A stretch of 64,000 nucleotides of DNA from Deltaproteobacteria bacterium (lineage in GTDB: Bacteria > Myxococcota_A > UBA9160 > SZUA-336), in assembly GCA_029261925.1 (NCBI GenBank), contig JAJDAJ010000054.1, forward strand, positions 2,670 through 66,669. The letters are read 5' to 3'. A program made the translations under genes and the position numbers. This document shows positions 941 through 8,138 of the stretch, piece after piece. Every line of letters starts with the position of its first letter. Position 1 is the first letter of the stretch. The notes beneath the pieces are model-generated. The model saw nothing but the letters and a program-made list of their open reading frames with translations. It searched no databases and was not told the DNA's origin.

Positions 941-1765
941 CTAGAAGCTCACCCCGAGCGGCCGGCGCAGGACCAGCCCCAGCAGCAGCGTGAGGCCCAC
1001 GAAGCCCCAGGTCGCGCCGGAGAGGCCCGCCCACTCCCCGCCGCGCCGCGGATACGCCAGGTGCACCACGCGCACCGGCCCGTTGGCGGGCAGCGGCACG
1101 GCGGCGGGCGATCCCAGGATCGCCGGCGCGCTCGCGCGCCGGGCGGCGGGCGAGACCGAGGCCGGCCCGGAGCCCACGCGAGCGCGCAGCGGCACCGCCG
1201 TACCCCCGAGATCGAGCGACAGCGCCCAGTCTCCCTCGCGGCGGGCACCGACCCGCCACACCAGCTCGCGGGTGCTCTCGATGCGCAGCGGCGGTGTCTC
1301 CTGCGCCAGGCCCTCGGGCAGCGCCAGGCGCGCGGACAGCTCGGTCAGGGGCCCCTCGCGATCGACGCGCGCGGTCAGCAGCGCGGACTCGCCGGGCGCC
1401 AGCGGGCGGTGACCGAAGCGCGTCTCGACCTGCACCAGCATGGCGGCGAACGGCAGCAGCATCAGGGCGAGCGGGGCGAGCGACAGGCGCAGGTACGTCA
1501 GGTTGTGCCGCAGCAGCCGCCCCTGGGCCCGCAGCATCACCAGCGGATCGTCGCGGAAGATCCGCAGCTCCAGGACACAGGCCTTCATGCGGTCCTTGGC
1601 CCGCTCGATGCGCTGCGGGTCGGTGGTCAGGCGATAGGCACCCAGGGCCAGCAGCGCGCCCGGGAGCGCCAGCCACGCCAGCTGCAGCACCAGCGGGGCT
1701 GTGGCCACCGGCCACAGCCACACGTCGAAGAGCGCGTTGAGCGCGCGGTTGAACAGCGGCCACAC
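941..1765 (-). CDS. Membrane protein, DUF106/EMC3/TMCO1-like (Oxa1 superfamily) architecture with inserted soluble domain
   Basis: TM1, charged helical hairpin (TDPQRIERAKDRMK...RAQGRLL), SLAPLALMLLP TM2, beta-rich insert, C-terminal TM3 ending LRRPLGVSF. Family call by eye. Confidence 0.6.
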   Translation of the reverse strand: MWPLFNRALNALFDVWLWPVATAPLVLQLAWLALPGALLALGAYRLTTDPQRIERAKDRMKACVLELRIFRDDPLVMLRAQGRLLRHNLTYLRLSLAPLALMLLPFAAMLVQVETRFGHRPLAPGESALLTARVDREGPLTELSARLALPEGLAQETPPLRIESTRELVWRVGARREGDWALSLDLGGTAVPLRARVGSGPASVSPAARRASAPAILGSPAAVPLPANGPVRVVHLAYPRRGGEWAGLSGATWGFVGLTLLLGLVLRRPLGVSF

Positions 1766-1986: not shown

Positions 1987-3926
1987 TCAGAAGACCGACC
2001 GGCCGCGCATCCCCTCGAGCGGCTCGACGCCGAACCACTCCAGGATGCTGACCGTCAGGTCGCGCAGACCCGCGCCCGCCGGCTCGTCGAGCGGGATGCT
2101 CGAGACCAGGGTTCCGGGCACGGCGCGCGCGTCCATGCAGTGGTCGCCGCTCCACTCGCGATCGTTGTCCTCGAAGAGCTCCCCGGGAACCTCGCCACGG
2201 GTCGTCGCCCACGACGCGCGGTAGCCGTGCGCGTAGCCGACCAGCACGTCGGGCGCATCGCCCACGGCGGGGCCGCTGTAGGCGCGCTCGCGGGTCAGCG
2301 GCTGCGTGACCACGTGCGCACCGCTGCGCGGATCCGTCCAGGCGGCCAGGCGCCCCGCGATCTCCTCCGCCAGCGCCTCGCGCTCTGCGGGGTCGACCAC
2401 GCCGTGGCGCTCGCGGCCGCGCACGTTGAGGTACAGGGAGTTCAGCCCCACCGCGAAGGCGCGCGTGCGGCTCCAGTCGATGGCACCCAGCCAGCGCGCG
2501 CCGCGGTCCGCCCCGTGCCGCAGGTGCAGGTAGCCCTCGCGCTCCAGCCAGGCATTCAGGTGCACCTGGTGGCGAAACGGCGCGAAGCCGTGGTCCGACA
2601 TGACCACCACCTCGGCGGCGTCGCCCACGCGCTCGAGCACGTCGGCGAGGATGGCGTCGAGCTGCACGTAGGACTCGCGCACGGCCTCGACCAGCGAGCT
2701 GGGCGTGTCCGGTGCGTGCAGCGGGTGAGCGGTGTCCATGTGGCGCCAGAGCATGTGGCTGCGCTGGTCGATGCTGGAGAAGTAGAAGAAGAGCAGCCCG
2801 CCGGGGCCCTGCTCGAGGAAGCGACCGAGCTCGTGGCGCAGCAGCCGGCGGCGCTCGTCGAGCACCAGCTCCGACTGCGCCAGGAACTCGGCCGGCTCGA
2901 GCACGTGCGCCGACAGCGCCTTGGTGTCCTCGGGCATCTCCTGGGTGTAGAAGGGCCCGACGGCCTCCGAGAGCTCGCGGGCGTACGACGCCGGGGCCGC
3001 GATCGGCTGCGCGGGCTCGGCGGGGTCGATGTTGACGGGGCTGGCGTACAGGCGGAAGCCCGGCCGGACGCTCTTGAGATAGAAGCGCACCAGGCCCGGA
3101 ACGCTGGCGACGACCGGCACCAGCTCGAAGCGCACCCGCACCCAGTCGCTCCACTCCCCCTCGCGGAGCAGCACGCGCGCGTCTCCGATGCGGATCTCCG
3201 CGACCGGGTTCTCCGCGTCCACGTGGACCTCGAAGTCCACGCCGGTGCGGGGCGCATCGCGGCGGAATGCGTTGGGCGGACCCTCGAGGCGCGCGCGCGC
3301 CGTGCCCCGGAGCACGTGCACCCGGTGCACGACGCCCCCCGGCACCCGGCCCGGGCTCCACTCGAGAGCATCGGTGTAGAAGCTGAACGTGCCGGGGCTG
3401 CCCTGCAGGTCCGGGGTCCCCATGCCGCTGAGCGCGCGGCCGGCGGTCTCCACCGGCGGGTAGTTCGCGGGCACGCGAAAGATCGTGGTCGGGATGCCCT
3501 TCTCCTCGAGCAGCTCCCAGAACGCACGCCCCCGGCGCAGCAGCTCCGTGCCGCCGCCGCGCAGGGGCACCCGCCACTCGCCGACCGACCAGAACGCGGC
3601 GTCGCGGACCCGCGTGGTGGACATGCGCGGCTGCAGCGTGTCGCGCTCCAGCGCGATGAAGTCGAAGATCCCGTGCTCGCCGGGATTGGTGCCGGTGATG
3701 AAGTCCGACCAGGCCACGGGACTCTGGGGCGGAACGCTGGTCTGCAGGGGGGAAAGCCCGCCCCGCTGCGAGAGCGCGCGGAACGCGGGCAGGCGGCCCT
3801 GGTCCATCAGCTGCCCCAGCAGCCCGGGATCGAGGCCGTCGATGCCCAGCACCACCAGGCGCCGCTCCGTCGCGGCGGCCGGCGCCGTCAGGGCCAGGAC
3901 CAGGAGCCCGGCGAGCAGCCCCCGCA

Positions 3927-3927
<1 letters not shown>
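1987..3927 (-). CDS. Alkaline phosphatase superfamily / type I phosphodiesterase-nucleotide pyrophosphatase family protein, Sec signal
   Basis: VLGIDG, PPQSPVAWSDFITG, DQRSH, SDHG, WSGDH metal-ligand motifs; signal peptide MRGLLAGLLVLALTAPAAA. Confidence 0.88.
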
Positions 3928-6064
<2,137 letters not shown>

Positions 6065-6068
<4 letters not shown>

Positions 6069-6685
6069 GGCTGCTCCTTGCGGTTGCGGTACAGCTCGCC
6101 GTCGATCGCCCGCGCCATCGGCGCGACCTCTCCGGTCAGGCCCAGGAAGCGCTGCACGTGCCCGGCCACCCGCTCGGGCGCCAGCACGGCCTCGTCGTAG
6201 CGCACGTCGAGCCAGCGCACGCCCGGCCGGCGCTGCATCAGGCGCCGCACGTCATCGAGGTGCCGCACGTACAGCTCCCGCGCACGGGCGTCGTCGACCG
6301 GGTTGGGCTCGCCCAGGCGCTCGAGCATCCGGTTCTGCGAGGTGATCACCTCGTCGAGGTCACGCAGCATGAACACGATGCGGTAGCCGTTGCCGGGCGG
6401 CAGCCAGCGCAGCAGCGGGGACACGACCTTGACCGCCTGGCCGCGCGCCTGGCGCACCCAGCGGCGGTCGGGATCGCGCTCCAGTCGCTTGACGCGCTCG
6501 AGCTCGAAGTAGCCATGAGGATTGTCCCGGTCGGCCTCACGCTCGCCGTCGCTGAGCAGCGGCACGCCGCCGGCGGCGAGCATGCGCATCATCATCGACG
6601 TCCCCGAGCGGGGCAGTCCAGAGACGACCACCACGTCGGGCCCCCAGCGTAGTCGGTACCAGATGTTCGCGAGCGTATGAGACAC
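6065..6685 (-). CDS. PAPS-dependent sulfotransferase family protein
   Basis: 5'-PSB loop VSGLPRSGTS, N-P-x-G-Y-F-E, MLRDLDEVITSQ (3'-PB motif); 4-nt overlap with the next gene. Confidence 0.85.
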
Positions 6686-6800: not shown

Positions 6801-8138
6801 ATGTGCGTCCGAAACACCGTCGCCTGGCTGTCGCTCGTGGGCGCGTGCGCGCTCGGCTGTGTGGTCGAGTCGCGGCCCGCGCCCGACCGCGATCTGGTCG
6901 TGCTGGTCGTGCTCGACACGATCCGCGCGGATCACCTGTCGCTCTGCGGGCACTCGCGGCCCACGTCGCCGGCGCTCGAGGCGATTGCAGCAGCGGGCGC
7001 GAGCGTGCGCTGCGACGCACAGGCGCCCGGCACCTGGACCCTGCCCAGCCACGCCAGCTACTTCACCGGCCTGCCCGTCGTGGAGCACGGCGCGCACTTC
7101 GGCCCGGGCGGCAGGCGCATGCTCTGGGACGTGACGGTCTTCCCGCTCGACGCGCGCGCACCGACGCTTGCCGAGCAGATGGCGGCTGCGGGCTACCGCA
7201 CCGCGGCCGTCTCGGCCAACCCGGTCGTGTCGTCCGAGACCGGCCTGACGCGGGGGTTCGAGATCGTGCGCCGGGCGGGGAGCTTCGGCGAGCTGTACGG
7301 CGAGCGCCTGGAACGCGCGCTGGAGCAGACCCTCGACCAGGTCGCGGAGGACGAGCCGCTGTTCCTGTTCCTCAACGTCGCCGACGCCCACCATCCGTGG
7401 CCCGCGATCCCGCAGGGTCTCGACTGGGTGCCGGAGCGTGCGGGCATGACCTACGGCATCAAGCAGCCCGACAGCCCCTGGCGCCGCTACATGGCCGGCG
7501 AGATGGCCGAGGAGGAGGCCGCGGAGCTGCGCGAGCACAGCACGGACCTGTACGACTGGGGCGTGCGCCGCGCGGACCGCACGCTGGCCGGAGCGCTGGA
7601 GGTGCTGCGCAGGCGTGGCCGCCTCGCGGGCGACCACCGCATCGTGATCACCTCGGACCACGGCGAGTTCCTCGGCGAGCACGGCCTCACGGGCCACTGC
7701 TGCTACCCCTACGAGGCGGTCACGCGCGTGCCCCTGCTGGTGCTGGACAGCAGCGGATCCCCGCAGCTGCCGGGCCCGGTCAGCGCACTGCACGCCTTCC
7801 ACCTGGCGCGGGACGGCGCCCTGCCCCCGGTCCCCGCGCCCCTGGTCTCGGTCGGGTTCCCGAGCCCGAACATGATCGAGCACGTGGGCCGGCTGGGCCA
7901 CGAGCTGGCGGTCGCGAGCTGGTCGGGCACGCGCAAGTCGCTGTGGATCGAGGATCGGCGGCTCGCGTTCGACCTCGAGACGGATCCGGACGAGCTGAGA
8001 CCCCTGCCCGCCGGCGGCCCCGATGCGCTGCTCGACTCGCTCGCGGCGGCGGCACGCGCGTCGCACACCCGCGGCGCGGCAGCCCGTGCCGACGCCGCCG
8101 CGGTGGAGCACCTGGAGGCACTCGGCTACGTGGAGTGA
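6801..8138 (+). CDS. Sulfatase-like hydrolase/transferase (Thr nucleophile), probable exported/lipoprotein
   Basis: VLDTIRAD, WTLPSHASYFTG, SDHGE, C-terminal LEALGYVE; hydrophobic N-terminus with ALGC. Confidence 0.85.
   Translation: MCVRNTVAWLSLVGACALGCVVESRPAPDRDLVVLVVLDTIRADHLSLCGHSRPTSPALEAIAAAGASVRCDAQAPGTWTLPSHASYFTGLPVVEHGAHFGPGGRRMLWDVTVFPLDARAPTLAEQMAAAGYRTAAVSANPVVSSETGLTRGFEIVRRAGSFGELYGERLERALEQTLDQVAEDEPLFLFLNVADAHHPWPAIPQGLDWVPERAGMTYGIKQPDSPWRRYMAGEMAEEEAAELREHSTDLYDWGVRRADRTLAGALEVLRRRGRLAGDHRIVITSDHGEFLGEHGLTGHCCYPYEAVTRVPLLVLDSSGSPQLPGPVSALHAFHLARDGALPPVPAPLVSVGFPSPNMIEHVGRLGHELAVASWSGTRKSLWIEDRRLAFDLETDPDELRPLPAGGPDALLDSLAAAARASHTRGAAARADAAAVEHLEALGYVE

Follow-up and report, generated by a model that had tools for sequence, protein, structure and literature searches.

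A bacterial DUF106-like protein of the Oxa1 superfamily and its constantly co-encoded membrane anchor in an enzyme operon

The window analysed here is a 64,000-nucleotide stretch of DNA from a Deltaproteobacteria bacterium (GTDB lineage Bacteria; Myxococcota_A; UBA9160; SZUA-336), namely positions 2,670 to 66,669 of contig JAJDAJ010000054.1 in assembly GCA_029261925.1, and the subject of this work is the gene at 941-1765 on its minus strand, which encodes a DUF106/Ylp1-like membrane protein assigned to the Oxa1 superfamily. Read along that strand, the genes follow one another as a sulfotransferase (6685-6065), a 713-residue (aa) enzyme (6068-3927), its 646-aa paralogue (3927-1987), a 64-aa protein (1964-1770), the DUF106-like gene itself (1765-941) and an epimerase (810-1). 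Adjacent genes among the first three touch or overlap, and the later gaps amount to 22, 4 and 130 bases. Unless a strand is given, coordinates below refer to the minus strand of the window.

Results

The open reading frame (ORF) at 941-1765 starts with GTG and encodes 274 aa; GC reaches 0.95 at its third codon positions and 0.54 at its second ones, the neighbouring genes are alike in this respect, and the gene is present as a single copy in its own genome (5.5 Mb in 111 contigs). An earlier note on this DNA, written from its letters, had quoted from the product the stretches TDPQRIERAKDRMK, SLAPLALMLLP and a C-terminal LRRPLGV(SF), all of which are found in the ORF, and had proposed an anatomy of a first transmembrane (TM) helix, a helical hairpin, a second TM helix with a P-x6-P pattern, a beta-rich loop and a third TM helix ending in LRRPLGV. 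This anatomy is borne out by an AlphaFold2 (AF2) model made from 14 homologues (mean pLDDT 85.9, pTM 0.73), in which an N-terminal helix (2-20) precedes TM1, the helices 25-47, 50-69, 74-117 and 250-266 form the layout of a three-TM core with a hairpin, and strands lie between residues 127 and 236.

Translated to the window, TM1 (residues 25-47) occupies 1625-1693 and aligns with TM1 of MJ0480, the archaeal Ylp1 discussed below. The predicted cytoplasmic hairpin or coiled coil (residues 48-95; 1481-1624) comprises the helix 50-69 and the one that begins at 74, and TM2 (residues 96-117; 1415-1480) carries two prolines, P98 and P105, that are invariant in both orthologue alignments (14 homologues, A1; 57 orthologues translated from genome loci, A5), together with a nearly invariant Q112. 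Between TM2 and TM3 lies an insert of roughly 125 aa (residues 118-247; 1025-1414), predicted to be a periplasmic beta-sandwich of the immunoglobulin-like (Ig-like), filamin-repeat kind. TM3 (residues 248-266, model helix 250-266; 944-1024 including the tail) contains an invariant W253, which with Q112 makes up the conserved polar or aromatic positions seen in A1 and A5, and is followed by the basic terminus LRRPLGVSF. Across the 57 orthologues the mean frequency of the top residue is highest in the hairpin (0.75), followed by TM2 (0.71), and is lowest in the insert (0.54). In the same set the hairpin carries 16.4 lysines and arginines per 100 aa, the C-terminus 25.4 and the N-terminus 6.3, and the insert is net acidic. 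Since this distribution of charge fits the positive-inside rule, on which alone the orientation is judged, the predicted topology is that of the Oxa1 proteins: N-terminus out, TM1, cytoplasmic hairpin, TM2, periplasmic Ig-like domain, TM3 and C-terminus in.

The assignment to the DUF106 branch of the Oxa1 superfamily, as a divergent member, is established at the level of sequence profiles. When the profile A1 was compared with all 177,635 sequences of the PDB, a single match was returned at E<=10, and that match was MJ0480/Ylp1 (PDB 5c8j) at E 9.6e-11, with positions 10-121 aligned to 11-126 so as to span the N-terminal helix, TM1, the hairpin and TM2. The TM3 stretch is co-linear with MJ0480 (172-197 of that protein), yet non-significant when taken alone (i-Evalue 110-360). 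The A5 profile likewise gave MJ0480 as its sole significant PDB match (E 4.6e-9), its next match being a filamin Ig repeat that falls on the insert (E 0.21), and a third profile, built from three members of a second subfamily described below (A8), placed MJ0480 at the top with E 4.7e-4 and its next match at 0.39. P98 and P105 line up with the two prolines of MJ0480 TM2, and the TM3 of that protein is matched by W253 and the terminal LR.xLG.

Domain libraries tell a less uniform story. The window protein by itself has no match in Pfam (no PF01956 at E<=1 and no PF02096, the YidC family) and none in NCBIfam, and a PF01956 search of its own genome misses the gene. PF01956 (EMC3_TMCO1) is nevertheless the commonest Pfam match among the 57 orthologues, 12 of which reach E<=1 (best E 4.6e-5) against 4 for the next family, and it also matches 2 of the 14 sequences in the smaller set. 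A word-indexed search yielded 13 homologues, two of them named by the Joint Genome Institute (JGI) as 'uncharacterized membrane protein (DUF106 family)', and an Atlas cluster of bacterial proteins bears PF01956 on 17% of its members; automatic annotation thus already hints at the link. The family membership claimed by the earlier note is supported by the three profiles, for which MJ0480 is the one significant solved relative, and by the modelled three-TM core with hairpin, although at the level of Pfam it stands for some of the orthologues and not for the window protein, which lies below threshold. The structural comparison proposed in the same note succeeded less well: a Foldseek search of the whole AF2 model against the PDB returned nothing at E<=0.001 and matched Ig-like folds on the insert alone, a second PDB structure search gave Ig-like matches only (its 5c8j row being the Fab chain and not MJ0480), and a clear superposition on a solved member of the Oxa1 superfamily was not obtained.

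Upstream of the DUF106-like gene lie two enzymes of the alkaline phosphatase (AP) superfamily, both matching PF01663. The first, of 713 aa (3927-6068; Pfam E 4.5e-34), was modelled by AF2 with a pLDDT of 84.8, and its nearest solved folds are a bacterial NPP, the alkaline phosphatases SPAP and PafA, phosphonoacetate hydrolase and ENPPs, with E values of about 1e-8 to 1e-6. Its N-terminus consists, in order, of a signal-like segment, the motif A-Y-[IV]-G-P-G-A-G, a TM helix and W-P-F-R followed by basic residues. In the window this anchor module lies at 5901-5993, with Y26-I-G-P-G-A-G32, a TM helix at residues 33-56 and the W-P-x-R end. The net charge of the 20 aa that follow the TM helix averages +7.8 (from +3 to +11, n=74), and because this segment is so strongly positive the catalytic domain is predicted to be cytoplasmic. 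The second enzyme, of 646 aa (1987-3927; Pfam E 4.6e-32), holds a conserved place in the gene order and bears a signal peptide, which in most of its orthologues among those listed is of the lipoprotein type. With the one domain predicted to be cytoplasmic and the other protein signal-bearing, the two paralogues should lie on different sides of the membrane.

The arrangement of these genes is well kept. Among 91 related loci examined, 73 have at least 4.5 kb of DNA upstream of the DUF106-like gene. In 70 of these 73 the anchored enzyme comes first, followed by the paralogue, the small protein and the DUF106-like gene; two more show the same order with split matches, and one (L100) is without the paralogue. 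The anchor motif was detected in 74 of the 91 loci, including all 73 with sufficient upstream DNA. Within the anchored enzymes the top-residue frequency is 0.94 over the motif and 0.71 over the TM helix, as compared with 0.39 over the signal-like segment that precedes them. In three loci (L070, L054 and L097) there are additional partial or full copies of AP-type enzymes upstream of the module, which suggests local duplication.

The most informative comparison comes from a second subfamily, defined by the weak matches of the phylum-wide search (E 3.5e-9 to 3.4e-5) and related to the first by hhalign with a probability of 98.7% (E 2.3e-16 over 236 columns). Its members are either proteins of about 250-260 aa with an insert in the same loop or short, insert-free forms, one of which, at 159 aa, is about the size of archaeal Ylp1. 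The loci of subfamily 2 contain neither the 64-aa protein nor either AP-type enzyme. Directly upstream of the DUF106-like gene in five of five such loci (L107, L108, L110, L111 and L112), there is instead a small protein made of 12-17 hydrophobic residues, Y-[IV]-G-P-G-P-G, a TM helix, [WQ]-P-[LI]-R, basic residues and an acidic tail. These small proteins and the enzyme anchors can be aligned jointly without a gap, with the Y, G, P, G, G and P invariant and the spacing fixed at 24 residues. The reduced locus L109, of subfamily 1, has kept only the anchored enzyme, the DUF106-like gene and the sulfotransferase.

Since the motif occurs in all 73 loci with enough upstream DNA and in all five subfamily-2 loci, which lack the AP-type enzymes, the constant partner of these bacterial DUF106-like genes is the Y-x-G-P-G-x-G anchor, and the sulfotransferase is the next most constant. 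The tie between the DUF106-like gene and a TM-anchored phosphodiesterase, suggested in the earlier note, is strengthened in that the invariant motif of the enzyme's anchor accompanies DUF106-like genes even where the enzyme is absent. The module itself matched no PDB sequence at E<=10 and no consistent Pfam family, and homology to EMC6 was undetected (PF07019 in 1 of 27 module sequences, at E 0.046). Complex prediction with the DUF106-like protein (alignment A5) and the first 80 residues of the anchored enzyme (alignment A4) gave a score of 0.00 against a mark of 0.32 with the fold of the partner uncertain, a result that weighs neither way on binding. A metagenome scan for subfamily 2 contributed one locus only.

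The sulfotransferase of the window (6065-6685; 206 aa) matches PF13469/PF00685 at E 1.4e-13, and 4 bases are shared between its stop and the start of the 713-aa gene. Of the 62 loci where this could be tested, 55 have a homologue no more than 1.5 kb from the cluster, on the opposite strand in 49 of the 55 and on the same strand, as in the window, in 6. In subfamily 2 a PF13469 sulfotransferase follows the DUF106-like gene directly in three of four testable loci, and two loci have arylsulfotransferases of the arylsulfate sulfotransferase (ASST) type; in L112 both were absent nearby. The ASST-type genes (PF14269/PF05935), at L107:4267-5724 and L110:7027-10152, are membrane-anchored and adjoin the pair of anchor protein and DUF106-like protein, along with a PF13469 sulfotransferase. 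For neither the window sulfotransferase nor the exported 646-aa enzyme was a solved relative found by sequence.

The 64-aa protein (1770-1964) is the immediate upstream neighbour of the DUF106-like gene in 90 of the 91 loci, the remaining locus having too little upstream DNA. It is strongly conserved (mean column identity 72%), with an invariant ...L.GLGY tail that reads LGYIE here and LGYIS in orthologues. Its resemblance to ribbon-helix-helix (RHH) proteins is weak (NCBIfam NikR at E 0.062; best RHH-like PDB entry 1y9b at E 0.94), and it had no Pfam match and no significant PDB relative by profile search; the nearest Atlas clusters, with scores of 0.94-0.95, are automatically named CopG/RHH.

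The family as a whole is large, bacterial and patchy. An exhaustive search returned 1828 homologue clusters at E<=1e-3, 1220 at E<=1e-10 and 86 at E<=1e-30, and most of the best 150 clusters listed are full-length proteins of about 270-290 aa; a search for shorter homologues gave fragments of 30-140 aa only and no bridging short forms. The family is present in 13 of 61 related genomes and in 41 of 401 (33 of the 339 of good quality) when the phylum is sampled evenly. A motif-seeded scan of one genome per species (alignment A3) found 218 relatives, from which 80 loci were kept that the motifs of A3 bias towards one subfamily; these derive from metagenome-assembled genomes labelled Acidobacteriota (Thermoanaerobaculia, Vicinamibacteria and 'Marinacidobacterales'), Gemmatimonadota, Myxococcota and Gammaproteobacteria, to which neighbouring Atlas clusters add Aminicenantota and Planctomycetota. 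The window's own genome also encodes, on another contig (C15), a canonical YidC (PF02096, 200.9 bits) that is its sole PF02096 match, so that the DUF106-like protein is an accessory beside the housekeeping YidC. An RpoB fragment of this genome has 70-72% identity to its counterpart in a metagenome-assembled genome labelled Myxococcota and 56-60% to those from three other phyla, with no match by this query in a fifth genome, which makes a Myxococcota-like genome probable.

Several further observations concern the surroundings of the module. The NAD-dependent epimerase/dehydratase at 1-810 (PF01370, E 4.8e-37), 130 bases past the DUF106-like gene, is not a conserved neighbour, with a match in 1 of 11 relatives' loci. 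Sulfatase-like lipoproteins are found among the genes next to the module, and one of them (6801-8138, plus strand) adjoins it in the window and ends in LEALGYVE. A C-terminal tail of the form ...E.L..L[RK].LGY[IV]x is in fact common to the 64-aa protein, this lipoprotein and many sulfatase-like or other proteins near the module in other genomes, several of them in L018-L105, and a second sulfatase-like frame of the same genome, with a lipoprotein-type N-terminus (C77:82313-83866), ends in LRALGYIE. Of 6754 coding-like frames in that genome four end in LGY[IVLM]x, three of these in LGY[IV]E; in the related loci 44 long frames have an LGY-type end, over-extended frames of the small protein included, and the subfamily-2 loci are devoid of it. 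The LGY[IV]x tail may be a docking motif or a signal. At L109:6774-9564 (genome G134) the anchored AP-type enzyme lies within an 817-aa frame with an N-terminal match to S-adenosylmethionine decarboxylase (PF02675, E 7.8e-6), a separate 115-aa PF02675 gene stands just upstream, and in the phylum search a 1072-aa open frame covers the DUF106-like match of the same locus; these long frames reflect either gene overlap within an open frame or fusion. Among the subfamily-2 loci, the next upstream gene in L107 encodes a protein with three Kazal inhibitor domains, and in L111 a GDP-mannose dehydratase and glycosyltransferases adjoin.

Discussion

The protein described here shares with MJ0480/Ylp1 the order of its elements, the P-x6-P of TM2, the tryptophan at the start of TM3 and an end just past LR.xLG, and differs from it in being bacterial, accessory to a canonical YidC, patchily distributed and furnished with an Ig-like domain of about 125 aa in the loop between TM2 and TM3. 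In Gram-negative bacteria YidC, an insertase for small clients of the N-out or hairpin type that operates beside Sec, combines a five-TM core with a periplasmic beta-sandwich, P1, between its first two TM helices. The DUF106-like protein belongs to the same superfamily and is likewise, though independently, predicted to carry a periplasmic beta-sandwich; it nonetheless represents a different family, encoded by a separate gene of the same genome, and its insert is placed between the last two core helices and not between the first two TM helices. The genomic setting also differs, in that archaeal yidC adjoins secY and ribosomal protein genes, as set out in the relevant passages of Makarova 2015 (PMC5898192), whereas the window gene sits in an enzyme operon.

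A closer parallel may be found in the habit of the three-TM proteins of this superfamily to pair with a small membrane partner, for which one account (PMC8675477), in its treatment of these pairs, gives EMC3-EMC6, GET1-GET2, TMCO1-OPTI and a predicted archaeal Ylp1-MJ0606. Here too the DUF106-like gene is invariably accompanied by the coding sequence of a conserved TM module. In contrast to partners of the EMC6 type, the bacterial module has a single span, bears the Y-x-G-P-G-x-G motif, can be fused to an enzyme and is without detectable homology to EMC6. We read the bacterial pair as analogous in role to the EMC3-EMC6-type pairs.

At this time, the reading that we favour, at about even confidence, is that the DUF106-like protein serves as a dedicated Oxa1-type insertase for, and partner of, the anchor in an envelope pathway linked to sulfation. 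A short N-out tail followed by one TM helix is the classical type of Oxa1/YidC client, as in Pf3 coat and M13 procoat, and the anchor would be a client of this kind because it has a single span, with only a very short N-tail facing outwards. That its interfacial motifs are invariant and their spacing fixed suggests, in addition, a contact that is lasting and specific and not a passing one. The DUF106-like protein and the conserved single-span anchor would accordingly form a two-part membrane unit, in which the former inserts the anchor and then stays bound to it. Such binding would hold the cytoplasmic enzyme, and probably also the neighbouring sulfotransferase, at the groove in the membrane; in subfamily 2 an acidic tail would be placed there instead of an enzyme. 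The periplasmic Ig-like domain could contact the exported paralogue, opposite the enzyme that is held, and the chemistry of the pathway would be a sulfation-linked modification of the cell envelope. The physical binding, the insertase activity and the pathway chemistry of this unit are each what we infer from the genes, their order and the predicted topology.

A different function for the same pair is conceivable, if rather unlikely in our judgement, in which the DUF106-like protein and the anchor act as a conduit or flippase that moves a small amphiphilic intermediate across the inner membrane through the hydrophilic, membrane-thinning groove. The sulfotransferase and the anchored enzyme would make this intermediate, a lipid or aryl compound bearing a sulfate or phosphate group, in the cytoplasm, and the exported AP-type paralogue, or the ASSTs of subfamily 2, would then pass the group to targets in the envelope. 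ASSTs need no 3'-phosphoadenosine 5'-phosphosulfate (PAPS), and it is consistent with a conduit that membrane-anchored genes of the ASST family occur in two subfamily-2 loci, that a PAPS-type sulfotransferase is usually adjacent, that the membrane unit is flanked by paralogous enzymes predicted to be cytoplasmic and exported, and that sulfatase-like lipoproteins are among the neighbouring genes. One subfamily-2 locus has no sulfotransferase or ASST nearby, however, and Oxa1-type proteins are established as protein insertases, with scrambling a side activity. Precedent for the latter is offered by the portion of PMC11997395 that deals with YidC, where it is described as both an insertase and a lipid scramblase.

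The version closest to that of the earlier note, which we also regard as improbable without thinking it far-fetched, is that of an insertase with transient action only: it would insert the anchor of the 713-aa enzyme, and perhaps other proteins of the pathway, independently of YidC and then release them, so that no stable complex is formed. The strict operon linkage agrees with such a role, as does the build of the anchor, a short N-out tail and one TM helix, ahead of which subfamily 1 has a signal-like segment and subfamily 2 no more than 12-17 hydrophobic residues. Nevertheless, hydrophobicity is what insertase clients require, and not invariant interfacial motifs at a fixed spacing; the genome already has a YidC; and the sole obvious client in subfamily 2 would be a tiny protein with an acidic tail.

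It is considerably less probable that the fold has been reused as a scaffold or regulator, that is, as a membrane tether devoid of insertion or transport activity. In such a tether the hairpin would serve to gather in the RHH-like 64-aa protein, the sulfotransferase or the enzyme domain, and the exported paralogue would be drawn in by the Ig-like domain. Protein binding is common among Ig-like domains, no segment of the family is better conserved than the hairpin, and the 64-aa protein combines extreme conservation with an almost unbroken adjacency to the DUF106-like gene. On the other hand, there are relatives without the 64-aa protein and relatives without the Ig-like insert, whereas the anchor module and a TM2 with both prolines persist. 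Last, that transmembrane and coiled-coil composition has produced the similarity to DUF106 by chance is scarcely credible, for although the single sequence has no Pfam match and the structure searches gave no clear match in the Oxa1 superfamily, three separately built profiles match one and the same PDB protein co-linearly with little bias (0.2, 2.7 and 0.1 bits), both prolines of TM2, the tryptophan of TM3 and the terminal LR.xLG find their counterparts in it, and PF01956 is the most frequent Pfam match among the orthologues.

Beyond the favoured reading of a dedicated insertase and partner, a bolder scheme can be drawn that we put forward as speculation and hold to be doubtful, namely that of a mobile trans-membrane relay of sulfuryl or phosphoryl groups shared by several phyla. 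The PAPS-dependent cytoplasmic sulfotransferase and the groove-tethered AP-type enzyme would load an amphiphilic carrier, the archaeal-type Oxa1 protein and its Y-x-G-P-G-x-G partner would flip it to the other side of the inner membrane, and exported AP-type or ASST enzymes would transfer the group to polymers of the envelope. If true, this would be the first bacterial DUF106-type machine and the first protein of the Oxa1 family dedicated to moving a small molecule or lipid, and it would explain how material outside the cytoplasm can be sulfated without periplasmic PAPS.

In the sections of the literature that treat the question (Anghel 2017, PMC5868721; Lewis & Hegde 2021, PMC8675477; PMC8662606; Makarova 2015, PMC5898192), DUF106/Ylp1 is regarded as an archaeal lineage with eukaryotic descendants, bacteria being served by YidC. 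A full-text search, the coverage of which ends short of subscription journals and supplements, found no published description of a bacterial DUF106 family. The main new point of this work is the shared anchor module; also new is the second, enzyme-free subfamily with its insert-free minimal form. A bacterial DUF106 branch would change the archaeal and eukaryotic picture, since it coexists with YidC, is wired into an enzyme operon and is always paired with one conserved membrane segment. It would also offer a system of simple genetics in which to study how an Oxa1-type groove deals with just one dedicated partner or client, and would indicate that insertase scaffolds can be recruited to pathway-specific jobs. 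For the organisms themselves, the DUF106-like gene seems to supply the central membrane component of a module for envelope modification that has yet to be described, and as such would mark a widely transferred, uncharacterised and sulfation-linked pathway for modifying the cell envelope in Acidobacteriota, Myxococcota, Gemmatimonadota and other phyla.

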